Notes under the pieces: generated by a model
Database searches by the model: none
Told to the model about the DNA's origin: nothing
Seen by the model: only the letters and a program-made list of their open reading frames with translations
Shown: in pieces, positions 3,831 to 29,314 of the stretch
Position numbering within the stretch: the stretch's first letter is position 1
Layout of the letters: each line of letters opens with the position of its first letter
Program-made: the position numbers and the translations under genes
From: a bacterium
Lineage (GTDB): Bacteria > Zhuqueibacterota > Zhuqueibacteria > Residuimicrobiales > Krinioviventaceae
Assembly (NCBI GenBank): GCA_963674595.2
Contig: CAXXFV010000003.1
Span: 224,001-288,000, forward strand
DNA length: 64,000 bases
Direction: 5' to 3'

Positions 3831-4554
3831 TTTAACTCCATTTAAGTCATTAACTTTTTATTCAATCAAACTTTTTAGATTATAATTACATGATCGAAAT
3901 AATATAAAAAATAAAGTCCTGGATGACTAATTTTCCAAGACTTGTAGCCTAACAAGTAATTTTGCCTTCCAAGGTTCCGGCTTTAGCGATCTGATTTTGT
4001 AGTTTGTCAATATGTTGTTCTTTCTTTTTTCGGATTTATAAGGTAAAGAGAATTGTAAAAACTTTAAATTATGTTGTTATTTACATAAAAAATTCTTAAT
4101 CAATTTTAATTATACAATACTCGATATTTTACGTAAAGGAAATAACCTCAATTATTAGTCGTCCTTATCATACTCTACTAATAATAACAGGCAAAAGAAA
4201 GAATTTTGACTATTTACAAAAGTAAATATTAATTTTAATCCAAACAAGGCATTTTTTATTTTTGTGAAAGGACAATATTCTTATGTGTGGATACTGATGG
4301 ATTTGGTAAGAATTTGACAAAGATAAAGAGACGTTAAAAGTGTTAAACATAGCCTTGATAAAGTAATAACAAAAGCACATACGTCTTGCAACATGCCTGT
4401 CCGGCAACTGTACATATTGTCCCCATAAACCGGCTAAAAATAAAAAGAAAGAGAGATATACACTCATATCCAAAAGGATCGGGAACGCAACCAATAATTA
4501 GATGATGGACAAATTTTATTTACCAAATTTATTTTTTAAGGAGAGAAAACAAAA

Positions 4555-5667
4555 ATGAAGAAAAAAGGAATTAGTCTATTTATAATTATAATTACAATAT
4601 GTGCCATTCAGAGTTGTCATAGAAATGATAATTTATTTCCAAAAGAAATCGTATTATGTTTGGAACCGTCAGGGGACAATCCCCGAAACAGCGAAGGTGA
4701 TTTTATCCAATTGACAGATGGACGGATATTGTTTGTGTATACTCATTTCTCCGGTGGTGATTCCGATCATGCCAAAGCCAGCCTGATGGGACGCTATTCG
4801 GACGATGGCGGCAAAACCTGGACGAAAGAAGACGTAGAAATTATCCCGAATGAAGGCAATATGAACGTGATGTCCGTATCGCTGCTTCGGCTGGATAATG
4901 GTCAAATTGCACTGTTTTACCTGCGAAAAAATTCCCTGGAAGATTGTGTCCCGATGATGCGGTTATCTTCTGATGAAGCGAATTCGTGGAGTGAGCCCAT
5001 TCAATGTATTCAGGAAACCGGTTATTATATTTTAAATAACGACCGTGTTATCCAGTTGCCAAACGGTCGAATTGTACTTCCGGTATCACGACATACATCT
5101 CCGGGAAAAGAGTGGCACGCATCCGGGCGTATCATGTGTTATTATTCGGATGATTATGGTAAAACCTGGACAGGTTCACAAGAGGTACCAAATCCAAACA
5201 AAGTATATGTGCAGGAACCCGGCGCGATTCAACTAAAAAACGGCGATGTTATGATGTTTTGCCGCACCGACAAGGGTGTACAATATCTGTCATTTTCAAA
5301 AGACCAATGTGAAAGCTGGTCACAGTTTGAACCAAGTAACATTGTTTCACCGAGGTCTCCGGCAGCGATTGAGCGCATCCCGTCAACCAATGATTTGTTC
5401 ATGGTATGGAATGAAAACTATGAACCCGAACATCGCGGCGCGGGGCGTCGTACGCCCCAGAGCATAGCAATTTCTACAGATGACGGCAAAAACTGGAAAA
5501 AGCTTGGTGATATTGAAGACGATCCGATTGGTTGGTTTTGTTATACGGCAATTGACTTTACAGACGATCATGTTCTGCTGGCATATTGTGCCGGCAACAA
5601 ACTACACGCAGGATTGAACAGAACTCAGATCAGCCGTTTAAAAATTGCAGATTTTTATAGCGAATAA
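4555..5667 (+). CDS. Sialidase/BNR repeat lipoprotein
   Basis: Lipobox-like IQSC; PRNSEGDF motif; Asp-boxes SDDGGKTW, SSDEANSW, SDDYGKTW, STDDGKNW; AAGGAG RBS. Confidence 0.85.
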   Translation: MKKKGISLFIIIITICAIQSCHRNDNLFPKEIVLCLEPSGDNPRNSEGDFIQLTDGRILFVYTHFSGGDSDHAKASLMGRYSDDGGKTWTKEDVEIIPNEGNMNVMSVSLLRLDNGQIALFYLRKNSLEDCVPMMRLSSDEANSWSEPIQCIQETGYYILNNDRVIQLPNGRIVLPVSRHTSPGKEWHASGRIMCYYSDDYGKTWTGSQEVPNPNKVYVQEPGAIQLKNGDVMMFCRTDKGVQYLSFSKDQCESWSQFEPSNIVSPRSPAAIERIPSTNDLFMVWNENYEPEHRGAGRRTPQSIAISTDDGKNWKKLGDIEDDPIGWFCYTAIDFTDDHVLLAYCAGNKLHAGLNRTQISRLKIADFYSE

Positions 5668-5759
5668 CAGCTTAAAGACATTATGCGGGGTTCCGGAACG
5701 GCGCCCTGCATAAAATTTATTATTCGTACATTCCTCATACTCTTCCATTTAAATTTTCC

Positions 5760-5811
5760 TTGACAATAACAGCAGAAAAGCGTATCTTTATTCAAGATAT
5801 ACGTGAACGTA
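5760..5811 (+). promoter_or_regulatory. Sigma70 promoter plus palindromic operator upstream of the MerR gene
   Basis: TTGACA(5760)-17 nt-TATCTT(5783); palindrome TACGT-GA-ACGTA at 5800-5811. Confidence 0.65.
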
Positions 5812-5851
5812 CATGTTTAATTAAAAATAAAAGTAAACGCTTGGAGACACT

Positions 5852-6556
5852 TTGAAAGAACGGGTATTTACAAGAGATGAATTTCTTATAAAAACACAAA
5901 CCTCAGAACATGATTTAGCACTTTGGGAAAAGAATAAATTAATTCAATCCATGGGATTCACAGAAGACCAGACACCCATTTATTCACAACCTGCAATTGA
6001 GCAGGTAGAACAGATAAAAAAGTTACAGGAATTGGGATATGATCTGGATGGCGTGCAAAAGATTATTAAAAAAGTGGGATTACCCCAACAATCCAAATCC
6101 GGTAAAGACAGCAGCAAAGGCAAACAATATATTACTGTTGGCAATTTAGCAGAGCGAATTGGAGTAAGCCCCCGAACGCTTAAACATTGGGAAGACAAAG
6201 GTATCATCGTGCCGGATATGCGAAGCGAAGGCGGTTTTCGGCTTTATTCAGAACACTATGTTTATCTATGCCATTTGATTCAGGATTTACAATTGTTCGG
6301 TTACTCTTTAGAGCAGATAAAAATCATATCCGATTATTTTCGAGAATTCCTGAGGTTGGATACATCCCTCGAATCCATGCCGGCACAGGAAGCTGAAGAA
6401 AAATTGAATGAGATGTCCGGAGAAATCGATCAATTGATAAAAAAAATTAATAGTTACAAAGAAGGCATTCAGCGCTGGGAAGATTTATTAAAAAATAAAA
6501 AGAAACAGGTCCAGGGTTTAAAAAACAAAAATCAAAAACGAAAGAATGAAAAATAA
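5852..6556 (+). CDS. MerR-family regulator with two tandem MerR HTH domains
   Basis: WEKNKLI...LQELGYDL and TLKHWEDKGII...RSEGGFRLY...LQLFGYSLEQI, then a C-terminal coiled coil. TTG start after GGAG. Confidence 0.85.
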   Translation: MKERVFTRDEFLIKTQTSEHDLALWEKNKLIQSMGFTEDQTPIYSQPAIEQVEQIKKLQELGYDLDGVQKIIKKVGLPQQSKSGKDSSKGKQYITVGNLAERIGVSPRTLKHWEDKGIIVPDMRSEGGFRLYSEHYVYLCHLIQDLQLFGYSLEQIKIISDYFREFLRLDTSLESMPAQEAEEKLNEMSGEIDQLIKKINSYKEGIQRWEDLLKNKKKQVQGLKNKNQKRKNEK

Positions 6557-7829
6557 AATGATTTGTTCTCAGCTCATTTCTGTTCCGCCAAACCAGGCCC
6601 CCGCTATACACGCGGCACATCATCCCTGCTACCAGGATGATTATCAGCGTTTACACCATCTTTACCATTCATTGCAGCCGGGCAAAGCCGTAAAAAAAGA
6701 CGGCCTGATCATTGAAAAGATGCCTTTTCATTCCGAACATGCATTGGTCACCAAAACTCAACCGGACTATACCATGAACCGGTCATTTAAGGCGCTTTTC
6801 CAATACTACCTGGCTCAAAACACCTATTCAAATCAATATATTTTTAAAAGCCTGCAAGTGTCTGATGCGGATGTTTTAGAAAATCAAAATTTCCAGCTCA
6901 TTCTGCTGAGACCCAGTTCCGAATTTCCAATCCGCAAAGTGATTGTTATGCTCCACGGCTTAAACGAAAAGTCCTGGGACAAATACCTTCCCTGGGCAAA
7001 TGATCTGGTCCGTCGTACCGGGGCGGCCGTGCTTCTTTTTCCCACGGCCTTTCACATGGACCGTGCGCCGGAAACCTGGAGCAGTCCCAAATTAATGCGA
7101 CAGGTGGCAAAAGAACGGGAATCCCTGTTCCCGGAAGTAACACATGCTACGTTTGCCAATGCGGCCATCAGCCACAGATTGCAATTTGCGCCGGAACGGT
7201 TTCTGACGTCAGGGATACAAACCTATCACGATATTATTTCTCTTTCCTGGCAAATCCGGGGCGGGCAATTTTCATATATTGATAAAGATGCTGATATTGA
7301 TTTTTTCGGATATTCTGCCGGCGCGTTTCTGGGAGAAATTTTAATGATGGCCAGCCCTTCGCAACTGTTTGATGGTTCTAAATTATTCATGTTCTGCGGA
7401 GGGGCAACCATGAACCAAACCCATCCTGTTTCCAAAATGATCCTGGACAGCGAAGCCAGCGAATCCCTGACTGTATACCTGGATTCTTTTGAACGACAGG
7501 GCCATCATACCCCGCTGCCGATGGAATCACATCTTTTTTTCAAAGCCATGCTTCACGAAAGCCAGAATCCCGAATTCAGGGCAAAACGCTTTGCTGAAAT
7601 CGGAGCGCGTATTTTTGCCGTTGGTTTGGAAAACGATACGGTTATTCCGGCTGAAGCCATCAAAAGAACCATAACCGTACCGGGTGAACAAATTCAAAAC
7701 ATGACGCACCTGGATTTCGACCATCCCTATACCCATGAAAATCCCTTTCCTGTTGTTGAAAAATATAAATCCGACATTCAAAAATCCTTTGAACAGGTTA
7801 TGACACTGGCGGCCGATTTTTATCTGTAA
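6546..7829 (+). CDS. Alpha/beta-fold hydrolase (DUF6051-like)
   Basis: MLHGLNE, FPTAFHMDRAP, nucleophile elbow GYSAG, YTHENPFP; overlaps the MerR stop codon. Confidence 0.75.
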   Translation: MKNKMICSQLISVPPNQAPAIHAAHHPCYQDDYQRLHHLYHSLQPGKAVKKDGLIIEKMPFHSEHALVTKTQPDYTMNRSFKALFQYYLAQNTYSNQYIFKSLQVSDADVLENQNFQLILLRPSSEFPIRKVIVMLHGLNEKSWDKYLPWANDLVRRTGAAVLLFPTAFHMDRAPETWSSPKLMRQVAKERESLFPEVTHATFANAAISHRLQFAPERFLTSGIQTYHDIISLSWQIRGGQFSYIDKDADIDFFGYSAGAFLGEILMMASPSQLFDGSKLFMFCGGATMNQTHPVSKMILDSEASESLTVYLDSFERQGHHTPLPMESHLFFKAMLHESQNPEFRAKRFAEIGARIFAVGLENDTVIPAEAIKRTITVPGEQIQNMTHLDFDHPYTHENPFPVVEKYKSDIQKSFEQVMTLAADFYL

Positions 7830-7854
7830 ATACAGGCACTCTTATAATCACCTC

Positions 7855-8126
7855 CAAAAAAAAATACAATCATTCTCAACATTTTTCAAAAAGCACTTGC
7901 ACTGTTTTTAAATTATATGTATTATTAATGTATCAGTAATATTATTTATTTCAGAATAATTTATCGAGCATGGGAATTACTGATACGCTTATTATTTTCT
8001 AATTGCAAATTATGGGATTTAAAAACACATACAAGGAAGAGATCGCCTGTTTTTTAGCATCATATCCCTGTTCTTTCTAATATAAATTATTGGGTCAAGT
8101 GTGTTCGGTTATTGGCATAGATTGAC
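7855..8126 (+). repeat. Dispersed promoter plus structured leader element, copy 1
   Basis: TTGCAC(7897)-17-TATTAT(7920); ATCAGTAAT...ATTACTGAT stem; blocks tcgagcatggga, atgggat, caaggaaga, aaattattggg shared with copies 2 and 3. Confidence 0.8.
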
Positions 8127-8242
8127 TGAATTGTTTTTCAGACAAATAATAATGTTTATAATTTTTATTTATTGAAAAACATTTTAACAGAAATGTACAC
8201 AAACCCGTCTCTCGAATTTAGTATTAAAAAAATTGGAGGCAA

Positions 8243-9487
8243 ATGATGTCGAAATCTAATTACCTGCTGATATTAATCTTTTTGTTCAGCCTGAGCTGTC
8301 AGAAAGACAACAATCCGGTTGACAGTAATGAGGTTAACGGCAAAGATGATACAATTGATATCAGCGTAAAAGAATCCAATTTATATGTAAATCTTGTATT
8401 TACTGACTCGACTTTTAGCGATTTAAATGGAGTACCGGTACGAATAGAAGGCGCAGTCTCTGATACACAAAAAACAGACGGCTCGGGAATTGCCTGGTTT
8501 AAATCAATACCAACCGGAAATTATAATGTTTTTATTGACATCTCTTATTTCAAGCCATATTCATCAAACATTGTAGTGACGGACCCGGCTACTCAACTAA
8601 AGGTCAATTTACAAAGACTTTATACAAATTTTAACGGAAAAGTGGTTGACCCCGTGGGGAAACCGGTTTCCAATGTAAACGTCTCCTTGTATTTAAATGA
8701 TGAGTATTTTTATTTAAGTAGAAAGCCCAAAACCATTGGAAATTTTGTAACTGATTCATTAGGTAGTTTTATAGATTCTCTGCCAAATGGAGAATACAAA
8801 ATTGAACTTTCCAAAGAAAATTATATTGACGCAACCTTTCAAATTAACATTGATTCCTCCACGGCAAACACTGACTTGACCATCTCAAAAAAACCAAGTA
8901 TAGATTATTTGCCCTTGCACGTAGGTAATAAATGGACATATAAAGATATTTATACATCGGGTGATCCGATTTATGTTTATCAAAAGTTTATTTCAACATA
9001 CCGGGTTGAGGTAATTTCAAGGGATGAGGCGCCAAATGGATTTAAATACACTCTTTCTCATTCCAAACAGGGGACAAAAATCAGTTATAATTACAGTAAT
9101 GGAATTGATTCTACACAAGTCAGCTATGAAGACGAGTGGCTAGATGAAATAGTTGTTAAAACCGACAGCATTTTAGGCGGATATCCTGCGTGCCGTTTAC
9201 TGCTTAATTATTTTGCAATTGGAGATAATTGGGAATACGATTGGGATTATTATATTAAAGCACAAAATTTTAGTTCATTTGAATTAAACGGCACGACCTT
9301 TCCTTCGGTAGTGCTTAGGATTTCATCCATAATTGGGATGAATTTTTATGAAAATTATGAGTATGCAGGTGACATTGGTTTGGTAAATTTTGAATACTAT
9401 AGAAAAATTGGTCATAATGAAGTTTATAAACGAAAAAGCACACTGGAAGGTGCAGAAATACTCGGAAAAACAACCTGGCCTGATTAA
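8243..9487 (+). CDS. Lipoprotein with carboxypeptidase-regulatory-like (Cna-B-type) domains
   Basis: Lipobox LSC; TDGSG..F..IPTGNY and GKVVD..GKPV...TDSLGSF...GEY repeats; YLPLHVGNKWTY domain; GGAGG RBS. Confidence 0.7.
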   Translation: MMSKSNYLLILIFLFSLSCQKDNNPVDSNEVNGKDDTIDISVKESNLYVNLVFTDSTFSDLNGVPVRIEGAVSDTQKTDGSGIAWFKSIPTGNYNVFIDISYFKPYSSNIVVTDPATQLKVNLQRLYTNFNGKVVDPVGKPVSNVNVSLYLNDEYFYLSRKPKTIGNFVTDSLGSFIDSLPNGEYKIELSKENYIDATFQINIDSSTANTDLTISKKPSIDYLPLHVGNKWTYKDIYTSGDPIYVYQKFISTYRVEVISRDEAPNGFKYTLSHSKQGTKISYNYSNGIDSTQVSYEDEWLDEIVVKTDSILGGYPACRLLLNYFAIGDNWEYDWDYYIKAQNFSSFELNGTTFPSVVLRISSIIGMNFYENYEYAGDIGLVNFEYYRKIGHNEVYKRKSTLEGAEILGKTTWPD

Positions 9488-9705
9488 CTTTTTTAACAGT
9501 CGGCTATTACTATACCCCATATTTATGCCCGGAAAATTCCGATCTCCGGGCATCGGTAAACAGCTTGGCGTATCCATGTATAAGGCATCTTTCTCAAAAA
9601 CATTGTAATAAGATAGATATATAGTTGGGTTCAGCTCATAGGTTCCACTTTCCAAGGGGCTGAACAGTAGAATAATCAAAATTGTAAAGTGTTAACATTT
9701 TATAT

Positions 9706-9990
9706 CCATAAAAAAATAACAATTCCATTATTTTCAACATTTTTCAAAAACCACTTGCGCTAGTTTTAAATAATATGTATTATTCTCTTATCAGCAAAAG
9801 TTTTTTCAGGACGATTGGTCGAGCATGGGAGTTCCTGATGCTCTTTTAGCTGATTTTCTATAATTTAAATATGGGATTAAACTGTACATGCAAGGAAAAG
9901 ATTGTAATTTTTTGAGAATCATATTCTTGGTTATTTATACATTAAATTATTGGGCTGGGAGAGGTGTGTTTGTGTGTAAGATAGATTCAC
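9706..9990 (+). repeat. Dispersed promoter plus structured leader element, copy 2
   Basis: TTGCGC(9755)-17-TATTAT(9778); same conserved blocks as copies 1 and 3. Confidence 0.8.
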
Positions 9991-10111
9991 ATAAAAAATG
10001 ATAATAGTACCACATGTATTATAACATGTCTTAAAATCATATAATAGTAAAAGGCCAAGCTTCTCCTAAATCAAAACCTACAAAATAACAGATTACACAA
10101 TAAGTTGTAAA

Positions 10112-10636
10112 ATGAAAGATTTTATAATGGACATTATCAAAATAGCTACCTCTGGCATATTTGGTATTTTAGGTATATTACTTGGATACTTTTTAAGCCG
10201 TAATAGTACCCAAAAAGCAGTTGACATGTCATTTGAAAAATTAAACATTATTATTGACAAACAAGAATTTATACGAGCTGCAAATAAGTTTCGTAATTCT
10301 TTTATAAAAGAAATCGTAGAGCTTGAAAAAATGGGTAATAATCCCCCCAAAGAAAGTGTTTATAAAGTTTTATTCGCTGCTCGTGATAGACATAAAAATG
10401 CAATGATAGATTTCAGATATTTCTTAAAAGGAGCTGATCTCGACAAATTCAATCAAGCTTGGATAGATTTTTCTGGAGATGATTATGAGAATCAAAATTT
10501 TAAAAAAAGTTATCAACAATATGATGTAAATGAAAACATAGAAAATATTTCTGAATTTGCATTGAAAAAACTAGCAATGAAAAATATAGATAAATTACTT
10601 GATTTTTCTAGACTTGAAAATCATAAAACCATATAA
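10112..10636 (+). CDS. Hypothetical protein with a single N-terminal TM helix
   Basis: 174-aa ORF, hydrophobic IATSGIFGILGILLGYFL, very AT-rich. Confidence 0.6.
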   Translation: MKDFIMDIIKIATSGIFGILGILLGYFLSRNSTQKAVDMSFEKLNIIIDKQEFIRAANKFRNSFIKEIVELEKMGNNPPKESVYKVLFAARDRHKNAMIDFRYFLKGADLDKFNQAWIDFSGDDYENQNFKKSYQQYDVNENIENISEFALKKLAMKNIDKLLDFSRLENHKTI

Positions 10637-10643
10637 TAATAAA

Positions 10644-11555
10644 ATGATCCAAAAAAACACAGTGATTATTCTTGGGGCTGGGGCCAGCAAACCATATAAT
10701 TTCCCTCTCGGAGTAGAACTGCGAGATGAGATAATAAAAATAGGTGCAAATGATCGTGGACTAGAAGCTACTTTTTTTTCACAGATTACAGGATTTGATT
10801 CAGGATACCTATATAAATTTACAACAGATTTATCTAAATCTGGTTATTCTTCAGTCGACGCATTCTTAGAAAACAGGCCTGAATGGATTGAAATAGGAAA
10901 GCATACAATTGCACATAAACTGTTTTTTTATGAAAAAAATGCAAAATTATTTCCACCTGAACAACCAAAGGACCATTGGTACGAAACTTTATGGCATAAT
11001 ATGATGGCTCCAACGTGGGAAGAATTTAAATTAAATAAATTACAAATTATTACTTTCAATTATGATCGTTCTTTAGAACATTATCTATCAACTATTTTAA
11101 GTAACAATTATAATATCTCTAAAGAAGAGATAATTCCCTCATTACCAATTATACATGTTCATGGTGATTTAGGTTCTTATAAAAATTATGGGAACCACTC
11201 CTTTGAAAATATAAAATTTGCAGTTTCTTCTATAAAAATTGTACATGAAAGTAATAATTCTACAAAAGAATTTAAACTAGCTGATAAAATCATAGAAAAC
11301 GCGAAGTCAATTCTATTTATTGGATTTGGATACCATATACAAAATTTGATAAAATTTAAATTATTTAAATCTTATTATGAAAATCCCAGTTTAGCATTAC
11401 GGCATCAATATAACAATCTTTTAGGTACTCACAGAGGAATTAAGTCTAAAGCATGGACTAAAATTTGTGGACGATTTAATTTTTCAAGAGAAGCAAAAAA
11501 TCAAGGTGGTGGTTCAATATCGGAATTTTTATCCGAATCGTTGGATTTAGATTAA
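10644..11555 (+). CDS. SIR2-like domain protein (putative NADase/defence effector)
   Basis: N-terminal ILGAGAS, ITFNYDR, HVHG and FIGFGY are SIR2_2-type motifs. Start placed at ATG 10644. Confidence 0.75.
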   Translation: MIQKNTVIILGAGASKPYNFPLGVELRDEIIKIGANDRGLEATFFSQITGFDSGYLYKFTTDLSKSGYSSVDAFLENRPEWIEIGKHTIAHKLFFYEKNAKLFPPEQPKDHWYETLWHNMMAPTWEEFKLNKLQIITFNYDRSLEHYLSTILSNNYNISKEEIIPSLPIIHVHGDLGSYKNYGNHSFENIKFAVSSIKIVHESNNSTKEFKLADKIIENAKSILFIGFGYHIQNLIKFKLFKSYYENPSLALRHQYNNLLGTHRGIKSKAWTKICGRFNFSREAKNQGGGSISEFLSESLDLD

Positions 11556-11795
11556 TAAAAAAAGCCATACTTTAGATACTCGAATAAAAATGTATTGCTT
11601 TCCACCTAACCCCAATCATCCAAAACTCGATCTCCCTTACCGCAAAAATATCGAGTGCGTTCTAAAATTATCTTGAAGCAACTGACATTTTTCACTACAT
11701 TGTGCCTTAAAAATAATTGAAACAAATCCGGGCTGGAAATTTTGGTCCGGTTTTTTATATCCATAAAAATAATTCTATCTCAACAAGGACTTTTC

Positions 11796-12692
11796 ATGCT
11801 GCAAACCCATCTCGGAGAAATAGCCGCCCTGTTAACCGCTGTTTTTTGGACCGCTACGGCCCTGTCTTTCGAAAAAGCAGGCAAACTGATCGGCTCGTTG
11901 GCTGTAAACTGGATCCGCCTGGCAATGGGCCTGGTGTTTCTCTCCATTTTTACATTGTTCACCAGGGGCATGCTTTTTCCTGTGGATGCCACAGCCCATG
12001 CCTGGCTCTGGCTTGGCATTTCGGGATTAATCGGTTTTGTCATCGGAGACGTCCTTTTATTTCAGGCATTCGTACTGATCGGCTCCCGCGTCAGCATGCT
12101 GATTATGGCGCTGGTCCCCCCTATTACCACTTTAATCAGTTGGTTTATGATGGGCGAAACATTGACGGGCACAGACTTGTTAGGTATGGGCCTGGTTGTC
12201 AGCGGGATTGCCCTGGTGGTGCTTGAACGTCCAAGCGGAGAGAAAAACATCAAGCTGTCACACCCTGTTTCCGGACTTTTGTTTGCTGCCGGCGGCGCTG
12301 TCGGACAAGCCGTGGGATTGGTGTTCAGCAAGTATGGTATGGGCGATTACAATGCCTTTGCCGCCACCCAAATTCGGGAATTTGTGGGTCTTTTGGGCAT
12401 GAGCCTGCTCTACTTTCCTTTAAGGGCATGGGGTAAAGTGGGCCTGGGATTTAAAAATAAAAAGGGCATGCTTTATACCACCAATGGTGCCTTCTGGGGT
12501 CCTTTTCTGGGGGTTAGCTTCTCACTGTTGGCCGTTCAGCACGCCCTGGCCGGTGTGGCCTCAACCATCATGTCCATTGTGCCGGTGCTTATTATTCCAC
12601 CCGCCATCATTTTCTTTAAAGAAAAGGTCACGGTAAAAGAAATGACGGGCGCAATGATCGCCGTCATTGGAGTCGGATTGTTGTTTTTATAA
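11796..12692 (+). CDS. DMT/EamA family transporter
   Basis: About 10 TM helices in two EamA repeats (GEIAALLTA...; FFKEKVT). ATG at 11796 follows AAGGA. Confidence 0.88.
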   Translation: MLQTHLGEIAALLTAVFWTATALSFEKAGKLIGSLAVNWIRLAMGLVFLSIFTLFTRGMLFPVDATAHAWLWLGISGLIGFVIGDVLLFQAFVLIGSRVSMLIMALVPPITTLISWFMMGETLTGTDLLGMGLVVSGIALVVLERPSGEKNIKLSHPVSGLLFAAGGAVGQAVGLVFSKYGMGDYNAFAATQIREFVGLLGMSLLYFPLRAWGKVGLGFKNKKGMLYTTNGAFWGPFLGVSFSLLAVQHALAGVASTIMSIVPVLIIPPAIIFFKEKVTVKEMTGAMIAVIGVGLLFL

Positions 12693-13088
12693 AAAATTTG
12701 AACTATACAATTTAAAAAAATTGATCACCCAAATGGCTGCCTTATCTGCGGTCGTATAAAAAAAGTACCGCCTTTACAGGTATAAACCGATATATCGATG
12801 AAACGTTTCAATATTGATATTGCCGATTCCCTCCCTGAGATTGTCCTGAAATAACCTAATCGAATTTTATAATTTAATACTTTCCTTAAATTTAGGTTGT
12901 ATCATTAAAAAACAATTATTAAAATAATCGACGGAAATTAAAATTTTACTCTGAAAAATAGTAAAAATTAGTGCTTTTATTTTTGATCAATGATATTCTA
13001 TAAAATTTAAATAATGGTAACGGATTCGGAATTTCAATTTAAAAAGCAGGCAAAGACCTGTTTGACAAAATTGTTAACAGGATCGGTT

Positions 13089-15047
13089 ATGGGCAACAAA
13101 TTATTTATAAAAAACATTATTTTTGTATTATTTTTAATTACAATTACAAATTGTAATATGGCTTTTTGTGCTGAAGAGCCGGTCCTCAAATGGAATTACA
13201 ACCAACCTCCGTTAAAATGGGGATACAACGATTTGAATAATGACGGCACTCCGGAAACATTATTGTATACATGGAACGGGAAAACGGTAATTTTTGTCAA
13301 CGATGACGGTCAACTACCCTGGAGCGCTGAACAGGAAAATCAGGACTGGAATGCCTATTTTAATAAAGCATTTAATGTAGAACAAAATCCACCGGTTATG
13401 TGGAACCCGATACGCAATAACTGGGGTAATTATACAATTTTAGTAGACAAGGACAGCTCAGGCAGATTTGACGACAACAATGACTTTTATTACAAAGCAA
13501 TGGACCTGAACAATGACGGGCAGCCGGAAGCAGAATTTTTAGTCCCTTTTCCGGGTCGTTCCGTATGGGGCAAACCATACTCAGCAAAACTGCATATCAA
13601 CCTGAACGGTGAAAACGATATGTGCTACCTTTCCTGGAAAGATTTTTTCTACCCGGATGAACAAACGTATACAGACGGCTTCAAATACATTATGAACATC
13701 CACGGCAGCGGCCTGTTTATGAATTGCTATCGTGCCGATATCATCAAAAGCTGGGAGAATCCAATTGCCTGGTATGACTTTGATTTTGACGGACGAACGA
13801 ATATGGTGATGCGATGTGCGGACACATTTCCCGGCGAGAATGGCCATAGAGGAGCAATCGGAGAAGCAGAATTTGCCTTTGAACTAAATTCCAAAACTTC
13901 TGAAAAGCTTTGGAGTGCTTTGGATTTACAATTGACATACTATGACAGTACGCAGGGTTTTGATATTTCCAAATATGCCGACAGAATTGAAAAAATTAAA
14001 GGCCTTAAAGAAGCCGATTTTTTATCCGAAAAATTACTGGCCCATCGGCAGGAAGCGCTTAGGCTGACGGTACCTTACCTTGACGGTTATATGATAATGA
14101 CAGATTATAACGACTGGGAAGGGGCCTGGTTTATTTTTGATGAAGACGATGAAGACGTCCGCTGGGAGGAGATGTTTAGCGTTCATGAAAAAATTAACGG
14201 CGAGTTTTCCGACCGAATCGGCGACCGCTGGGAACACGACAAAGACTTTTCCGGCAAAGGAAAGCTTTATGTTGGAAAATTTGACGGCAGAATCCATTTG
14301 TTTGGGGCGGATGAAGGATATTGGGAGATAGACTACCTGGGTTTATATCATGGAAGTTGTGACCGGGGAAAAACCAAAGAAGGCCCGAAACCGCCAAAAG
14401 GTTTAAAATATCCGTTGGTACGATATTACGACAGTGATAAAAATGGATTTATCGATAAAATAGAATATTCAACGGTTGAATATCAAAATGAAAGACAATC
14501 AAAAAATGTGGTCAAAATCATCAATCTTTTTGATTATGTCACAGCCGAAAATCCACATCCAGATGTATGTGAACTGTTTAATCCAAAAGTAGATGTTCCA
14601 TTAAAAGGATTTAAAATAGAAAACTGGGATGCCCAGTCCTTGCAAGCAAAAGATTTTGAAAACAGCCCAATCAAAGCAGCCTATGATAAATTTTATAAAT
14701 TCTATGGAACTGTTGGTGAAAATCTCTGGAACGATGCGGAAAAATTATATGCCGTTGCAAAAAAACATAACCTTAACCAAAGTGAAAATGCGGACAAAGA
14801 TTTAAAAATCCATTATACCAGGGAAAAATTATCAACATTTAAGGTACTTGATATTCCTTCGGGTTACTCCAGACATTTACAGGCAAACGAAAGACACGAA
14901 AAATATAGGAACGGTTTTTGGCTAAAAGAAAAGGTCTTTGACGATATATTAAAAGCACTTTCGGATGAGGAAAAAATTCAAGCATGTAGTTATTATTACC
15001 GGAATGAAACAGACAGCCTTTGTAAATATTTAGACAGCAGGTTTTAA
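13089..15047 (+). CDS. Secreted hypothetical protein with several Dx[DN]xDG Ca-binding-like motifs
   Basis: Signal peptide after MGNKL; DLNNDGTPE, DLNNDGQPE, DFDFDGRTN, DSDKNGFID. Confidence 0.65.
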   Translation: MGNKLFIKNIIFVLFLITITNCNMAFCAEEPVLKWNYNQPPLKWGYNDLNNDGTPETLLYTWNGKTVIFVNDDGQLPWSAEQENQDWNAYFNKAFNVEQNPPVMWNPIRNNWGNYTILVDKDSSGRFDDNNDFYYKAMDLNNDGQPEAEFLVPFPGRSVWGKPYSAKLHINLNGENDMCYLSWKDFFYPDEQTYTDGFKYIMNIHGSGLFMNCYRADIIKSWENPIAWYDFDFDGRTNMVMRCADTFPGENGHRGAIGEAEFAFELNSKTSEKLWSALDLQLTYYDSTQGFDISKYADRIEKIKGLKEADFLSEKLLAHRQEALRLTVPYLDGYMIMTDYNDWEGAWFIFDEDDEDVRWEEMFSVHEKINGEFSDRIGDRWEHDKDFSGKGKLYVGKFDGRIHLFGADEGYWEIDYLGLYHGSCDRGKTKEGPKPPKGLKYPLVRYYDSDKNGFIDKIEYSTVEYQNERQSKNVVKIINLFDYVTAENPHPDVCELFNPKVDVPLKGFKIENWDAQSLQAKDFENSPIKAAYDKFYKFYGTVGENLWNDAEKLYAVAKKHNLNQSENADKDLKIHYTREKLSTFKVLDIPSGYSRHLQANERHEKYRNGFWLKEKVFDDILKALSDEEKIQACSYYYRNETDSLCKYLDSRF

Positions 15048-15098
15048 TTTCCCCTTGATGATAGGATGAATGAAACATTATAACGGTAGTAATGAGCT

Positions 15099-15135
15099 AA
15101 AAATGGGTACAGTTGTGGGTCTGGCCCATTTTTTT
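15099..15135 (+). terminator. Probable intrinsic terminator
   Basis: aaaaatggg...cccatttttt stem with T-run after the 13089-15047 gene. Confidence 0.5.
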
Positions 15136-15209
15136 ACTCTATAAAATAATAAACGAACATATAATATTCATGCATACCACTTCACCCACTCTCTTAAAAA
15201 ATCTAATAG

Positions 15210-15455
15210 TATAAAAATCCCTTGCGCTGATTTTGAATAATTCGTATTATTCTTTTATCAGGGATAAATGATAATTTTTCAGGACAATTGGTCGAGCACG
15301 GATGTTCCTGATTTACTTTTATCTCACTTTCCATTTTTCAAATACGGGATATAACAGCACACACGAGGAAGAGACGGCACTTTTTAAAAAGCCAGCTTTC
15401 TCTAGTTAATGAACTAAATTGTTGCTGGGAAAAATATAAATAATGTGTTTAGATA
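15210..15455 (+). repeat. Dispersed promoter plus structured leader element, copy 3
   Basis: TTGCGC(15222)-17-TATTAT(15245); ATCAGGGA...TTCCTGAT stem; same conserved blocks. Confidence 0.78.
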
Positions 15456-15517
15456 AAAAGTATATGAAAATGATTTGATAATTAACAACTCTAATTCGAC
15501 AAGTTGGGGAGAAACCA

Positions 15518-17413
15518 ATGAATGGACTAAAAAAATCTGTATTAACAACTATCTTGTTGTTATTAATATTTTCATGTAAAAAAGATCTTTCCACTGATTA
15601 CAAGAAAACAATCAGTTATCCTGTCTATATTTCAACGATTGCTGTTCCTCATACAAACTGGATGTGGCAATATCCCAAACCCCAGGGCAATACACTTAAT
15701 TCCGTATTCACAATTAATGAAAATGAAATTTGGGCGGCTGGTGAAGCCTCAACAATACTACATTCAAAGGACGGCGGTAAAAACTGGTCAGTAAAATCAT
15801 TTCAATCAGAGGAAAGCTTTTTTGATATTTTTTTTCTGAACGAAAATATCGGCTGGCTGGCCGGAACAAACGGCATCATTTTCAACACATTGGATGGCGG
15901 TGAAAGCTGGCAGTCACAATTACTGGATGTTAATAACTGGGTAATCAGTATTTACTTTATCGACGAAAATAATGGATGGGCTGTAGGTTATGATGGCTTG
16001 ATTGCAAATACAATTAACGGCGGAGAAACCTGGCACACAAGTTTTTATAGCGGCGCTACCTGGTTTTATTGCGTTTATTTTCAAGATATAAATCATGGGT
16101 GGATCGTCGGTGACAAAGGCACAATTCTTTATACAGACAATGGCGGCAAGACGTGGGACAAACAATCCTCCGGTACCACGGAAAAACTTGACGATATATG
16201 TTTTATAGAAAACAAAGGATGGATCGCCGGTCATTCCGGAGTGGTTTTGTCCTCTGCCAATAATGGAAAAAGCTGGCATCAGGCTGGTAATACGAATTCC
16301 AACAGAAATAGCAGCATTGTCTTTACCGATCAAAATAATGGCTGGATTGTTGGTAGGCGGTCGGATAATATTTTCCACACAACAAATGGTGGGAATACCT
16401 GGACGGCTCAATCAATTGATGGGTTTGAAGGTCTTTTATCTGTTTCCTTTATTAATGAAAATAAAGGATGGGCAGTCGGTAAAAACGGACTGATGTTCTT
16501 TACCGAGGATGCCGGCGATACCTGGCAAATGTTTTCAACACATCGTAAAACAGAGTGGTTTGAAAGCATTTTCTTTATCGATTCGAAATTCGGGTGGACT
16601 GCCGGCGGCAGAGGTGAAATTCTATGCACAACAGACGGCGGACAAAACTGGGATGATATATCTCCGGACATTACCCACAATCTTTGTGATATATTTTTCC
16701 TGGATCACAACAACGGCTGGGCTGTAGGCGGTTCATTGGGTAAAGATATTATCATTCACACAAATAATGGTGGTAAAAACTGGGACATCCAATCTGTTGA
16801 TACCTATAGTTATCTGAATAGTGTTTTCTTTATTGACCAAACAACCGGGTGGGCAGCGGGCACGGATGGTACTATTTTACATACTGAAAATGGGGGTGAG
16901 AACTGGACAGATCAATCTCCCGGAATTGATATATGGCTGGAAACCATCCAATTCCTGGACAAAAATACAGGCTGGGCCGCCGGTCACGGCAGAACAGTTG
17001 AAGGACACAAAAGTCACATTTTTCACACAAAAGATGGCGGTATAACATGGTCTCCTCAAATAATAAATTCAAGTTATATCTGTGATATTTATTTCAAGGA
17101 CACACAAAATGGCTGGGCAGTCGGCACTGATAGATATATTCATTATACAAAGGACGGCGGGCAAACATGGCAGGAAAGCCAGAATTTTAACGAAATTAAC
17201 TTATTAAATAGCGTATGTTTCGCAAATAATTCTACGGGATGGGCAGGCGGTTACCATGGAAGGATGTTTAAAAGCACAGATGCGGGTAACCATTGGGACC
17301 TTCAATTTATAAATACCTGTACAGACATAAATTCGCTTTATTTTATGGATGATAAAACAGGATGGCTGGTTACAACAAATGCAATTTTGCATACAACCAC
17401 AGGTGGTGAATAA
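15518..17413 (+). CDS. YCF48-related/BNR beta-propeller lipoprotein
   Basis: Lipobox FSC; ~14 repeats of F.D...GW..G..G.I..T.DGG..W. Confidence 0.88.
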   Translation: MNGLKKSVLTTILLLLIFSCKKDLSTDYKKTISYPVYISTIAVPHTNWMWQYPKPQGNTLNSVFTINENEIWAAGEASTILHSKDGGKNWSVKSFQSEESFFDIFFLNENIGWLAGTNGIIFNTLDGGESWQSQLLDVNNWVISIYFIDENNGWAVGYDGLIANTINGGETWHTSFYSGATWFYCVYFQDINHGWIVGDKGTILYTDNGGKTWDKQSSGTTEKLDDICFIENKGWIAGHSGVVLSSANNGKSWHQAGNTNSNRNSSIVFTDQNNGWIVGRRSDNIFHTTNGGNTWTAQSIDGFEGLLSVSFINENKGWAVGKNGLMFFTEDAGDTWQMFSTHRKTEWFESIFFIDSKFGWTAGGRGEILCTTDGGQNWDDISPDITHNLCDIFFLDHNNGWAVGGSLGKDIIIHTNNGGKNWDIQSVDTYSYLNSVFFIDQTTGWAAGTDGTILHTENGGENWTDQSPGIDIWLETIQFLDKNTGWAAGHGRTVEGHKSHIFHTKDGGITWSPQIINSSYICDIYFKDTQNGWAVGTDRYIHYTKDGGQTWQESQNFNEINLLNSVCFANNSTGWAGGYHGRMFKSTDAGNHWDLQFINTCTDINSLYFMDDKTGWLVTTNAILHTTTGGE

Positions 17414-17562
17414 AAAAGATGTGCTGGTATTCATTATAAAGCTTTTGTATTTCATCAATAATTATCTAGCTGGACTCGGCCTTTAGGCTACGTTATAAGT
17501 AATAAATATCAGAACGTTCGAAGACATTTTTAAAACAAAACGTAAAAAAAGTGAGGAATACA

Positions 17563-18069
17563 ATGAAACGCTTATTCCTGTACAGATTTTATTTAATCTA
17601 TTTGTTACTTTTTTTCTTTATCAATTGCGAAAAAGATACAGTTACGGTTCCTGATGAATTAAAACAAGAGTCTGAAATAATTGATACAAGCCAGCATTCC
17701 ATGATGATTCATCTGGACAAAACAGAATACAAAAAAGATGAAATTGCCAAAATAACTGTTACAAACATTTTAAAAAAAGATTTAATTTTAGGCCACTGTG
17801 CTTTTAATATAGGATTTGACATTGAAAAAAGAATAAATAGAAAATGGGAAATGCCTTATACAGTAACCTGCCTTGCAATAGGAGAGCCGTTTTATATAGC
17901 ACAAGATTCAACATTAAAAGGCTCGATTCATTTTCCAATTTTTGAAAATGAACTTGACAGCGTCGAAGGTTATTACCGTCTTAAATTATGGCTCCAAGAT
18001 GCTCAAGAAAGAACTTTGATAGCTGATTCTTTAAGAGTATCAGATCCTATTAAAATAGTATCTGACTAG
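17563..18069 (+). CDS. Hypothetical lipoprotein, Ig-like
   Basis: Hydrophobic signal ending INC; LDKTEY..DE...ITVTN...GYYRL pattern. Confidence 0.6.
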   Translation: MKRLFLYRFYLIYLLLFFFINCEKDTVTVPDELKQESEIIDTSQHSMMIHLDKTEYKKDEIAKITVTNILKKDLILGHCAFNIGFDIEKRINRKWEMPYTVTCLAIGEPFYIAQDSTLKGSIHFPIFENELDSVEGYYRLKLWLQDAQERTLIADSLRVSDPIKIVSD

Positions 18070-18270
18070 ATAAAAACATTAGCTAAAACCTGGCAAAAAG
18101 TTAATCTAAAGAGATTTAATTAAATACCATTCAAACTTTCCAAATAATCCTATTATATTAATACCGGGTTACAGATATTATTTTTAAAATATGAGGTGGC
18201 ATATTGATTGAAAATTTATTACAAAAATCCCTTGCACACTTTTTTTATAATTTGTACTATCATCATATAG

Positions 18271-18759
18271 ATGTCAGCCATATTAAATAATCCAAATTTT
18301 ACTCTAGTGTTTAAAATGCATAAAGTTCCATCTGAAAAAGACTGGGGAAATTATAAAGAAAATTTTGATTCTTTATATGCCTATGAAATGTTCTTTGGTA
18401 AAACCAATGATGACATGCAGGAAAGCTTTCAGGTAAACGTTATCGAACGGGTCGATAACTTACGATGGATGCCGGTAAAAGCATTTCGATACTATATATT
18501 TGGATTAAAAGATTATGTTATGAACGGTGCTTTTGAATTTTCGGACGAGGCAGATGCTTCATCATGTTTTCTGGACCTCATCATAGAAAAACAGGAAAAT
18601 CAGTCCGATTATATTTATCCTGTTTTACAGGATTTAATGGAAGCAATCGAGTATGTCGGCAAACATCAATCTGAATTTGATGCTGATGAAAACATATATG
18701 GCAATTTTAAAGAAAAACTGGAAAGAATTAAAGAGCTGGAAAAAACGTATAAACAATAA
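18271..18759 (+). CDS. Hypothetical acidic protein (start may be MHKVP, ~18316)
   Basis: 162-aa ORF; upstream TTGCAC(18232)-17-TACTAT promoter. Confidence 0.6.
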   Translation: MSAILNNPNFTLVFKMHKVPSEKDWGNYKENFDSLYAYEMFFGKTNDDMQESFQVNVIERVDNLRWMPVKAFRYYIFGLKDYVMNGAFEFSDEADASSCFLDLIIEKQENQSDYIYPVLQDLMEAIEYVGKHQSEFDADENIYGNFKEKLERIKELEKTYKQ

Positions 18760-18798
18760 ATACTTTACTCTCATATCAAAAGCGCTAAAGACGGAAAA

Positions 18799-20250
18799 AT
18801 GACAGAAAAAGAAAATAAACATTGCGAAAAAAGTATCACAAACCTGCAAAAAAAATCTGTTCCTAAAATGCCGCTTGCAATTATTGCCATGATCGGTCCG
18901 GCCTTTATCTGGGCGTCATTTGCCCAGGGCAGCGGCGAGCTTGTATGGTGGCCTTATCTGGCCGCTAAATACGGCCTGTCCTTTATCGGTCTGCTGCTTC
19001 CGGCCTGCCTTATACAATTTTTTGTTAACGCTGAAGTCATTCGCTATACAGCTTTAACAGGTGAGGGCATCTGGGCCGGATTCAAACGACTTGGGATTTG
19101 GTACTCTATACCGCTGTTTGCACTCTGTTTTATATCGCTTCTGTGGTTCGGCGGATACGCCAGCGCCGGTGGTACGGCCCTTTATGAGCTGACACACTTT
19201 CCCGGTCATGTATCTCCCCGGGCCGGATCATTATTCTGGGCTTATGTAACCATTGCTTTGTTTTCATTCGGCATGTTTAAATCAACACGCGTATATAAAC
19301 TGCTTGAAAATTTTATGAAGGTCATTGTGGGCATAACCGTCATCGGACTTTTAATCTCACTGTTCCAGCCGCAGGTCTTTTCGGCATCAAAAGATTTTTT
19401 CTCCTCTTTTTTTAATCCCTTTAGCATCAACATCCCTGCAAACTGGGACCCGACTGACGCATCAAAACTGTTGACAGCAGTGGCCTTTGCCGGTTTGGGT
19501 GGATTTTTTACGCTGATGTATTCCTATTGGATGAAAGACAAAGGTGTGGGCATGGCTGTTTATACCGAAAAAGTCCAAACCGATAAAGATATATCCGGTA
19601 AACAACAGCCGGAACATACAGGCTTTTATTTTGAGGACACTCCGGAAAACAAAACCAACTGGATGGCCTGGCGAAAATATTTACGTTATGACAATCTTTT
19701 TGGTGTTTTAATTAATTTATTTACGGTTATGATTACAACCTGGCTGGCCCTGGCCCTGCTGGCACCCAAAGGGATTTATCCACAGGGCTGGAAAATCGCT
19801 GTGGTACAGTCCGATTTTTTTTATCAGTGGCTGGGTACAATAGGAAAAATTTTGTTCCTCATCATCGCGGCCGCTTTTCTGGGTGACACATGGTTTGCGG
19901 CAGCAGACGGCGCATCACGCGAGTTTGCGGATTTTACACGATCCCATTCATCCCGGGCCGGACAAAAAAGCTTTAGCTATTGGTATTACTTTTGGCTTGT
20001 TTTTCTTATTGCTGTTACGTGTATCACCATGCCCCTGGCACAACCCGGCGCTTTGATTCAAATTGGCGGTGTAATCAGTATCGTTGCTTTCGTTCTGTTT
20101 ATCCCTGTGCTTTATTTCCTGAACTATCGATTGCTGCCTAAAAAATTCCCACAATGGGTAGTCCCTCCTGTTTGGCGGGCTATTATACTCTGGAGTGTTT
20201 GGGCAATATATCTTTTAATAGCAATCTGGTATCTCTATATTGTTTTTTGA
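18799..20250 (+). CDS. Nramp-family (MntH/YcsG-like) permease
   Basis: IGPAFIWASFAQGSGE, RYTALTGE, ~11 TM helices; lacks the canonical DPGN metal motif. Confidence 0.75.
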   Translation: MTEKENKHCEKSITNLQKKSVPKMPLAIIAMIGPAFIWASFAQGSGELVWWPYLAAKYGLSFIGLLLPACLIQFFVNAEVIRYTALTGEGIWAGFKRLGIWYSIPLFALCFISLLWFGGYASAGGTALYELTHFPGHVSPRAGSLFWAYVTIALFSFGMFKSTRVYKLLENFMKVIVGITVIGLLISLFQPQVFSASKDFFSSFFNPFSINIPANWDPTDASKLLTAVAFAGLGGFFTLMYSYWMKDKGVGMAVYTEKVQTDKDISGKQQPEHTGFYFEDTPENKTNWMAWRKYLRYDNLFGVLINLFTVMITTWLALALLAPKGIYPQGWKIAVVQSDFFYQWLGTIGKILFLIIAAAFLGDTWFAAADGASREFADFTRSHSSRAGQKSFSYWYYFWLVFLIAVTCITMPLAQPGALIQIGGVISIVAFVLFIPVLYFLNYRLLPKKFPQWVVPPVWRAIILWSVWAIYLLIAIWYLYIVF

Positions 20251-20285
20251 AAGAAAAAATTTGCAACAAATAAAAGGAATTTAAA

Positions 20286-29142: not shown

Positions 29143-29208
29143 TTGTACAGGGTCGGACTATAACCGTTGCGCGACAGTACCGGAATTTCACCGGATTTCA
29201 CCATACAA
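29143..29208 (-). ncRNA. Cobalamin riboswitch (short AdoCbl-variant/class II type)
   Basis: Minus strand tgtatggtgaaatccggtgaaattccggtactgtcgcgcaacggttatagtccgaccctgtaca: cobalamin core ggtgaaattcc / ctgtcgcgcaacggt / agtccga with a closing stem, in the nrdD leader. Confidence 0.85.
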
Positions 29209-29314
29209 ACCGCTTTAAATTTTCTTATATTCTATAATTTATTGTTTATAAACAAGACCTCTTAATTCCTATTACATATTTATTTTAACATCCGTTCCGG
29301 TACAATAAACACAA

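Follow-up and report, generated by a model that had tools for sequence, protein, structure and literature searches.

The subject of this study is a repeated intergenic module, made up of a predicted promoter and a structured leader, in a 64,000-nucleotide (nt) stretch of the genome of a bacterium of the phylum Zhuqueibacterota; this whole stretch, C3:224001-288000 of a 6.62-Mb assembly with 37 contigs and 38.8% G+C, is called the window below. Three copies of the module precede genes in the window, and a fourth, promoter-only relative lies behind them (Table 1). A previous sequence-only reading had placed three intergenic copies at these positions, and they were confirmed both by alignment (mean column identity of 70% among the three) and by their recovery as direct repeats (families D2, D4, and D5). 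The geometry that it described, TTGCRC followed after 17 nt by TATTAT and after another 6 nt by ATCAG, was exact in copies 1, 2, and 3 when read from the sequence, and the promoter-only relative was likewise present in direct-repeat family D2. As for the copy number, the three copies are real, but profile searches of the genome showed a recurrence far beyond chance, with about a hundred copies in the family instead of three.

The homology between copies 1 and 2 begins at 7856 and 9714, respectively, with 79% identity over 92 nt (D5). The hairpin of copy 1 folds at -9.8 kcal/mol (z -2.6), and the remainder of its leader carries a Shine-Dalgarno-like block at ~8032-8041, a partner arm at ~8062-8070, and a G/T-rich tail at ~8087-8104. 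Copy 2 folds at -20 kcal/mol (z -1.9), and copy 3 at -16.9 kcal/mol (z -2.1), with a degenerate outer helix and retained middle and inner helices. The promoter-only relative ends 10 nt upstream of an open reading frame (ORF) at 18271. Concerning the genes behind the copies, Pfam supported the call of a Cna-B-like lipoprotein behind copy 1 and confirmed that of a YCF48-type lipoprotein behind copy 3. Behind copy 2, the 174-amino-acid (aa) protein had no Pfam family, and the SIR2 call for the gene at 10599-11555 was weak (SIR2_2, E=9e-4, 19.8 bits with a cut-off of 24.5 bits).

Table 1. Module copies and associated genes in the window (window coordinates; promoters and starts are predicted; R1 is a covariance model of the module; X8 is another run)
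Feature	Position	Strand	Basis
Copy 1, A/T-rich upstream tract, 5' edge of module	7858..7896	+	homology, joint on X8 contig, 80-copy profile
Copy 1, predicted promoter: TTGCAC 7897-7902, 17 nt, TATTAT 7920-7925	7897..7925	+	read from sequence
Copy 1, leader 5' hairpin from predicted +1 (ATCAG at 7932)	7932..7985	+	fold, family covariation
Copy 1, remainder of leader	7986..8105	+	R1 match spans 7930-8092
Gene behind copy 1: lipoprotein-like, CarboxypepD_reg and SdrD_B domains	8243..9487	+	Pfam
Copy 2, upstream tract and predicted promoter: TTGCGC 9755-9760, TATTAT 9778-9783	9714..9783	+	sequence, repeats, profile
Copy 2, leader: ATCAG at 9790, 5' hairpin 9790-9854	9790..9951	+	R1 match 9788-9951, 130.6 bits
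Two genes behind copy 2: 174-aa protein, 318-aa protein	10112..11555	+	ORFs, Pfam
Terminator-like hairpin and T-run closing the unit ahead of copy 3	15115..15137	+	hairpin and T-run in sequence
Copy 3, upstream tract and predicted promoter: TTGCGC 15222-15227, TATTAT 15245-15250	15210..15250	+	sequence, repeats
Copy 3, leader: ATCAG at 15257	15257..15423	+	R1 match 15255-15423, 126 bits
Gene behind copy 3: YCF48/BNR-repeat lipoprotein	15518..17413	+	PSII_BNR, E=1.2e-67
Promoter-only relative: TTGCAC 18232-18237, TACTAT 18255-18260	18217..18260	+	D2, 77% to reference copy

The module family comprises roughly 90-120 copies in one genome. A profile built from the three window copies gave 81 matches in the genome at E<1e-8, and one round of iteration gave 121 matches at E<=1e-3, among which 87 had E<1e-15 and about 30 were promoter-only pieces. 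The matches are spread over 20 of the 37 contigs, with the highest density on C13, C29, and C26 (7-12 per 100 kb). The 80 best of the 121 matches were taken as loci L001-L080, in which window copies 1, 2, and 3 are L039, L002, and L030.

The promoter positions in the 80 copies are numbered upstream from the final base of the -10 box (-1). The core positions of the sigma-70-like promoter were conserved at 95-100%, comprising CTTGC at -30 to -26 (95-100%, or 96-100% for TTGC) and the TAT(a/t)AT box, in which four positions reached 98-100%; TTTG directly ahead of this box, at -10 to -7, was conserved at 88-100%, and a run of five A at -38 to -34, preceded by a T-run, at 91-99%. The leader had a median pairwise identity of 61% (5th-95th percentile, 50-73%; 169 positions in 82 distinct copies), and only 4 of 3147 pairs were more than 90% identical. 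An old and diverged family with a near-invariant promoter core points to selection on promoter function rather than recent copying. Upstream of about -55, the flanks are unrelated to one another and often carry terminator-like hairpins or other palindromes, indicating that the repeat starts where a promoter would start, at the promoter upstream tract. In these flanks, a short A/T-centred palindrome with GGGAT...ATCCC ends recurs just 5' of the modules L013, L014, L065, L067, and L069, and one of its 10-nt arms was counted 175 times genome-wide on both strands; it may be this genome's repetitive extragenic palindrome (REP) or a common terminator.

The copies are strongly directional with respect to the genes that follow. 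When ORFs of at least 100 aa starting within 600 nt downstream were counted, 61 of the 80 copies had co-oriented ORFs only, 6 had ORFs on both strands, 3 had opposite ORFs only, and 10 had none, so that 67 copies in total are followed by a co-oriented ORF. In our own tally, the first ORF lay no more than 550 nt from the predicted RNA start in 72 of the 80, with a median of ~320 nt. The claim that the downstream genes are unrelated was largely borne out, since the 86 downstream proteins fell into 74 BLAST clusters, the largest with 11 members. Pfam was run on 80 of these proteins and assigned no family to 36 of them. The families found included eight type IX secretion tails, consistent with the superphylum of KSB1/Zhuqueibacterota, as well as two Gp49/HigB-type toxins and one nucleotidyltransferase; TIR, Schlafen/AlbA_2, and KAP NTPase domains; GmrSD, a type I restriction R subunit, and an SNF2 helicase; and a caspase domain, DUF4238, sensor kinases, a Y1 transposase, and a tyrosine recombinase. 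At L087 (contig C29:42000-54000), five modules lie within 7 kb, and two near-identical Gp49/HigB-type toxin pairs stand behind adjacent modules, which suggests a tandem duplication of whole units there.

With its own predicted promoter and a structured 5' domain, and with 10 of the 80 copies having no ORF of the counted size nearby, the conserved 200 nt might instead be a multi-copy gene for a trans-acting small RNA and not a leader. We consider this very unlikely, as a co-oriented ORF follows 67 of the 80 copies and no shared 3' terminator was seen on inspection. In addition, a comparison of four conserved blocks of five copies with the rest of the genome revealed no outside locus with extended similarity or complementarity, the best matches being 13-20 nt with E>=0.01.

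The leader spans ~200 nt, beginning with a ~75-nt 5' hairpin that starts 6-7 nt after the -10 box and continuing with ~120 nt that are conserved as sequence. Most single-sequence folds gave one nested hairpin starting at ATCAG, with an outer helix of ATCAGC and GCTGAT, a middle helix of AAAGGAC-type and GUCCUUU-type arms, and an inner helix of UCAGGA and UCCUGA, the loop of which (~22 nt) is conserved in sequence. When a MAFFT alignment of 67 copies was given to RNAalifold, it predicted 0 pairs, which was traced to misalignment of the variable arms, and the pairing was therefore tested by partner swaps and with a hand-drawn structure. In the partner-swap duplex test, the arms paired with their own partners at -10.5 kcal/mol compared with -8.1 kcal/mol for swapped partners, and 0 of 2000 permutations were as good; the same held for the inner helix by itself (0 of 2000), and for a control region 618 of 2000 were as good. 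As neutral drift from a paired ancestor predicts equal energies for own and swapped partners, this test is not inflated by the relatedness of the copies.

The comparison of aligned columns gave the same picture. In a sequence-only MAFFT alignment of 57 copies with the hand-drawn structure of 28 pairs, 83.0% of the cells were paired, compared with 34-50% when the partners were slid; 58 cells carried double changes against a shuffled mean of 37.1 (0/500), and the covariation score was 0.188 against 0.163 for shuffled data (0/500). The alignment of 82 distinct copies fitted to R1, which leans toward the structure by construction, had 85.3% of its cells paired, 23 of the 28 pairs changed on both sides, and 118 double-change cells against 52.6 (0/500). 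An unbiased scan of all pairs of 14-column segments placed its top five pairs within the hairpin (z -6.6 to -4.3) and revealed no helix or pseudoknot besides the hairpin and a weak second helix. The sequence-only reading had proposed a structured leader whose ATCAG pairs with a downstream CTGAT. This stem is the outer helix of the family and covaries, although the family's 3' arm is mutated in copy 3; the pairing proposed for copy 3, ATCAGGGA/TTCCTGAT, was not upheld, as it borrows the 3' arm of the inner helix, and the minimum-energy fold keeps the middle and inner helices. Structure of the leader as a whole was supported by covariation for the 5' hairpin and not for the remainder beyond the weak second helix.

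Concerning the strand that folds, cells with G-T or T-G outnumbered those with A-C or C-A by 144:86 in the MAFFT alignment and by 189:86 in the fitted alignment, and the sense-strand fold was lower in all five of five comparisons. This excess of G-T, together with the lower sense fold, modestly favours the transcript sense strand as the folding strand.

The blocks conserved as sequence in the leader are UUUACCA, GGGAUU, a Shine-Dalgarno-like block with TTG, and a G/U-rich tail. The ribosome sites of the downstream genes lie in the variable spacer, not in the conserved leader. As repeated GGA motifs had been proposed to fit CsrA/RsmA binding, the genome was checked for csrA, and the gene was found (86.9 bits); when the consensus was inspected against the structure, three of the five GGA-containing blocks fell in 5' arms of helices, and most GGA motifs are in stems. 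In a leader regulated by CsrA/RsmA, such motifs would be expected in loops, with one of them over the ribosome site of the controlled gene. Two other candidates were rejected, namely covarying direct repeats in the 3' half of the leader (664 of 5000 permutations as good) and pairing of the leader with the 3' end of 16S rRNA, for which only a 4-nt GAGG match was noted by eye. The rRNA operon itself lies at window 59284-64000 on the minus strand (5S, 23S, two tRNAs, and a 16S gene cut by the window end), and the 16S 3' end carries the standard CCUCCU anti-Shine-Dalgarno.

The Shine-Dalgarno-like block is followed in many copies by a 5-nt gap and TTG, with frames that stay open for 14-84 codons and begin alike (L-R-R-S-x-N-H-I-P-V type), and an integrase gene described below uses this TTG as its start. 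The 3' half might accordingly encode a conserved leader peptide whose translation controls the downstream gene, an idea to which we give scarcely any probability. All three frames of the consensus are open, which makes openness uninformative, and there was no excess of variation at the third codon position (0.65, 0.39, and 0.63 bits at positions 1-3; 11 copies scored). In the three window copies, the frame stops early or the TTG is missing; some copies are separated by indels of 1 or 5 nt, and close copies diverge after ~12 codons. The claim of the sequence-only reading that the module holds no conserved ORF agrees with these frames and with the variation by codon position, by which a small leader ORF is unsupported.

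To examine variation among strains, contigs of four other runs, which are low-depth metagenome contigs, were compared with window 4000-21000. One contig (run X8; 5,789 nt) follows 6690-7840, then has 17 letters equal to 7841-7857 save one, and continues with 9714-12691; copy 1 and its gene are thus exactly lost, with 7857 joined to 9714. After 12691, 99 letters of different sequence follow on the same contig before it rejoins the window at 18223, the base with which the promoter-only copy begins; this copy is therefore the right edge of a strain-variable segment. On another contig (run X3; 27,529 nt), 9636-11617, comprising copy 2 and its two genes, is replaced by 1092 other letters. The joint of 7857 and 9714 lies at the 5' edge of the repeat and not inside shared sequence, which argues against repeat-induced misassembly. 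These losses and replacements show that units of a module plus its gene or genes behave as strain-variable cassettes.

Gain and loss between strains would also be expected of a non-autonomous mobile element of the REPIN type or of the type of miniature inverted-repeat transposable elements (MITEs), in which the hairpin would be a single-stranded DNA signal, spread by a Y1/REP-associated transposase or a recombinase, and the promoter a by-product. The high copy number in one lineage (the module had no match in 40 relatives and none in 150 phylum genomes) and a hairpin that folds on both strands fit such an element. Further, a REP-associated tyrosine transposase (NF047646, 85.5 bits with a cut-off of 80; L024:2615-3160 on the minus strand, contig C23 ~97.8-98.4 kb) has a module copy on each side, and four weaker Y1_Tnp matches lie on the module-rich contigs C29, C26, and C16. 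REP families with such a transposase typically consist of short palindromes, often as inverted pairs and in either orientation, on the two sides of one transposase gene. Nevertheless, we judge this explanation to be improbable. The repeat is asymmetric, ~260 nt long, and directional (67 versus 3), and its 5' edge is the promoter tract. Inspection of the flanks of 80 copies, made without a formal search, revealed no terminal inverted repeats and none of the target-site duplications for which a check had been proposed; the ends are an A/T tract on the 5' side and a G/T-rich tail on the 3' side. The copies are old (median of 61%, 4/3147 pairs above 90%) and yet keep the promoter at 95-100%, and such divergence with conserved promoter positions argues for selection for expression rather than recent transposition. 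In REPINs, the stem is usually more conserved than the apical loop, and the module shows the reverse. Finally, other, shorter palindromes resemble the REPs of this genome more closely, and the ~2:1 preference for G-T over A-C also speaks for RNA over a DNA signal.

Strain-variable units with accessory cargo also raise the question of integrons. The genome has one bona fide integron integrase (TIGR02249, 454 bits with a cut-off of 265; C3:115823-116767, which is L088:7821-8813 on the minus strand), ~108 kb from the window. The reading frame of this gene opens with the TTG of the leader itself, 5 nt past the Shine-Dalgarno-like block, so that the promoter, leader, ribosome site, and first ~eleven codons of this gene are module sequence, and the block is plausibly able to serve as a start site. 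The integrase is co-oriented with what follows, which is the 'reverse' integron arrangement reported for Treponema, Chlorobium, and others (PMC6557892). After the integrase stop comes a ~150-nt region ending in a GTTAGCG-type core, a near-identical copy of which stands behind module L047 on another contig, and a single-sequence nhmmer search with this attI-like region found only 2 copies. Next come a gene for a secreted protein and a textbook attC of ~150 nt (L088 ~6130-6280, minus strand) with CTAAC and GTTAG cores, matching inner boxes, and a DNA fold of -23 kcal/mol (z -2.5). The next ORF follows this attC with no module ahead of it.

Based on this arrangement, the units could be integron-type gene cassettes, bounded by attC sites with RYYYAAC and GTTRRRY cores, and the module either a promoter cassette lacking a gene or a portion of an attI/attC-like site on which the integrase acts. 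Besides the integrase fused to a module copy and the reverse-type integron with its attC after the first cassette, this view is helped by an attC/attI-like site noted by eye between module and ORF in ~15 of the 80 copies (~10 sites with a profile of the attC-like 3' half), and by cargo typical of cassette arrays (toxin-antitoxin, defence, and secreted proteins). Promoter-bearing gene-less cassettes are also known (PMC11014356 and PMC6557892). Around most modules, however, no attC can be recognised on either side; upstream they are flanked by terminators or unrelated palindromes, and the true cassette next to intI has an attC and no module. No GTTRRRY-type core was seen at the 7857|9714 joint, which lies at the module's 5' edge, and the spread of the modules over 20 contigs, with the window copies ~108 kb from intI, does not fit an array beside the integrase. 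In a crude scan for attC, 118 hits were obtained compared with 67 for shuffled sequence, with no clustering near modules; the scan missed the known attC and is therefore a weak test. The counting of attC-half motifs was noisy, and a gapless inverted-repeat search near intI missed the attC. Taken together, we consider it quite unlikely that the units are integron cassettes.

The integrase module is also connected with large repeats. Upstream of it, a repeat of at least 12 kb, which contains a gpA-type terminase-like gene, is shared between C3 ~116.8-129 kb and C10 51.9-63.5 kb at 91-96% identity, with partial copies on C9, C25, and C3; another repeat, of ~6 kb, is common to a second group of modules on C3, C5, and C9. 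In both groups, the similarity passes the promoter into the leader and stops there, with different genes beyond, which indicates that a minority of the modules form the cargo-side end of multi-copy large elements.

Searches beyond this genome gave a narrow distribution. The statement of the sequence-only reading that the module matches no known riboswitch was borne out for Rfam families by a covariance-model scan of the region: Rfam 15 had no match there at gathering thresholds, and at E<=5 the segment 7800-18400 had only three minus-strand hits, which were at chance level (20-21 bits). Elsewhere in the window, an AdoCbl-II (cobalamin) riboswitch aptamer was recognised at 29145-29215 on the minus strand (38.1 bits with a gathering score of 36.5). 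R1 matched all 69 of the scored candidates from the module's own genome. It had no match in 40 relatives, of which 18 come from 10 other genera of this bacterium's family and 22 from its order, and none in 150 genomes from 93 genera of the phylum, for which 18 candidates per genome were scored under stricter filters. A degenerate module pattern had 0 hits in the metagenome contigs of the Joint Genome Institute (JGI), and blastn against plasmid and phage collections found no match. The exact pattern had four hits in species-representative genomes of other phyla (three Gammaproteobacteria and one unclassified bacterium), apparently in coding sequence and similar in the pattern only, in a gene which we take to be clpB; these were rejected. 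Among the genomes and collections searched, the family thus appears to be confined to this species, and it is probably lineage-specific. In literature searches limited to mobile promoters, KSB1/Zhuqueibacterota, and gene-less promoter-bearing integron cassettes, no description of it was found among titles and the opening lines of abstracts.

We consider a lineage-specific portable expression module with a 5' hairpin acting at the RNA level to be the probable explanation, held with some reserve. The module would consist of an A/T-rich upstream tract and a sigma-70-like promoter with a TTGC-type -35 box, a 17-nt spacer, and TTTG before TAT(a/t)AT. Transcription would start ~7 nt past the -10 box, at or just before ATCAG, and the transcript would begin with the three-part hairpin of ~75 nt, followed by the ~120-nt sequence-conserved leader with its Shine-Dalgarno-like block and TTG, a variable spacer, and the gene's own ribosome site. 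In this way, transcription units that are accessory or were acquired horizontally would be given a strong promoter. Base pairing at the 5' end is a classic brake on 5'-end-dependent decay, as in ompA-type leaders, and the hairpin may shield the mRNA from such decay, serve as a platform for a common regulator, or do both, which would bring much of the flexible genome under a common type of control, with whole units of module and genes gained, lost, or replaced between strains. The sequence-only reading had proposed a new cis-regulatory RNA or small RNA family or a portable module for acquired genes; the portable, directional module with a covarying hairpin is supported, and a free-standing small RNA is unlikely given that 67 of the 80 copies lead into a co-oriented ORF.

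Several points weigh against this explanation. The promoter activity, the transcription, and the start site are all predictions from the sequence, and a consensus promoter scan, which gave 57 sites where 45.9 were expected, did not list the module promoters; they were missed because TTGCRC matches only three of the six positions of TTGACA. For ten of the 80 copies, no ORF of 100 aa or more starts within 600 nt, though several of these precede smaller ORFs. In the window, z-scores of -1.9 to -2.6 mean that the three hairpins only modestly beat shuffled sequences. Covariation is confined to the 5' hairpin, and beyond it the leader shows conservation of sequence alone, the second helix (AGGAA/UUCCU and GAUU/AAUC) being weak (7 of 2000 in the partner swap; z -2.7 in the scan). 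The antisense hairpin folds about as well, with equal or better z-scores, and the G-T bias of ~2:1 is partly favoured by the fitted alignment; the hairpin might thus also be a structure of single-stranded DNA. Lastly, the conserved apical loop and linker blocks are unexplained by a pure stabiliser role and suggest that something specific may also bind there.

A bolder version of the portable module, which we regard as unlikely though worth stating, is an undescribed cassette system in which a promoter-hairpin handle marks more than 100 accessory units, a factor reading the apical loop switches them together, and the repeats act as exchange joints. The marked units would include defence genes, toxins, secreted proteins, the REP-associated transposase, and the integron integrase, and the system would be a functional analogue of the integron with promoter-leader repeats in place of attC. 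As for the portable module itself, about a hundred old, diverged copies with a selected promoter core and hairpin front much of the flexible gene content, and the units vary from strain to strain. Should the hairpin stabilise mRNA or bind a common regulator, the module would illustrate how acquired genes are expressed and co-ordinated in an uncultured bacterium, and it would represent a compact natural expression part. The fusion with the integrase and the position at the cargo end of multi-copy 12-kb elements further link the module to gene capture.

Among known systems, stem-loops at the 5' end stabilise mRNA in the E. coli ompA 5' untranslated region and in the Bacillus aprE and ermC leaders. 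As is predicted for the module, these have a hairpin at or within a few nucleotides of the 5' end and a long leader that is movable between genes. The hairpin of the module is much longer, its apical loop is conserved in sequence, and it occurs in about a hundred natural units.

Promoter-bearing repeat elements such as Correia, ERIC, and REPIN (named in PMC3575422) share with the module the multi-copy intergenic position, the hairpin potential, and the ability to carry promoters, and a REP-associated transposase is present in this genome. The module differs from them in that no terminal inverted repeats were seen on inspection, the orientation to genes is strict, the copies are old, and the promoter is selectively conserved.

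The closest system-level analogue is the promoter-carrying gene-less integron cassette. These cassettes (Blanco et al. 2024, PMC11014356; Tansirichaiya et al. 2019, PMC6557892) are non-coding, like the module, and provide sense-strand promoters for downstream accessory genes, as the module is predicted to do; the present genome also has a reverse-type integron, the integrase of which carries the module. In contrast to such cassettes, the module mostly lacks attC flanks, is one family re-used about a hundred times on 20 contigs, and includes a structured leader.

The closest published concept is the putative mobile promoter, or promoter re-use, defined by at least 80% identity over at least 50 nt upstream of non-paralogous genes (Nijveen, Matus-Garcia and van Passel 2012, PMC3575422). 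The module is of this kind, although most of its pairs are below the 80% cut-off and copies 1 and 2 are borderline (79%, 92 nt). In both cases, homologous non-coding upstream regions stand before unrelated genes in one genome, with no known mobile element attached, and an RNA motif may ride along (PMC3575422). Most families of putative mobile promoters are pairs at ~92% identity, whereas the module has about a hundred copies at a median of 61%, reaches ~200 nt into the predicted transcript with a covarying hairpin, and forms strain-variable units with its genes. The novel aspects of the module are therefore its about one hundred copies at 61% median identity, the covarying hairpin within the unit, and its place at the head of strain-variable units and of an integron integrase.

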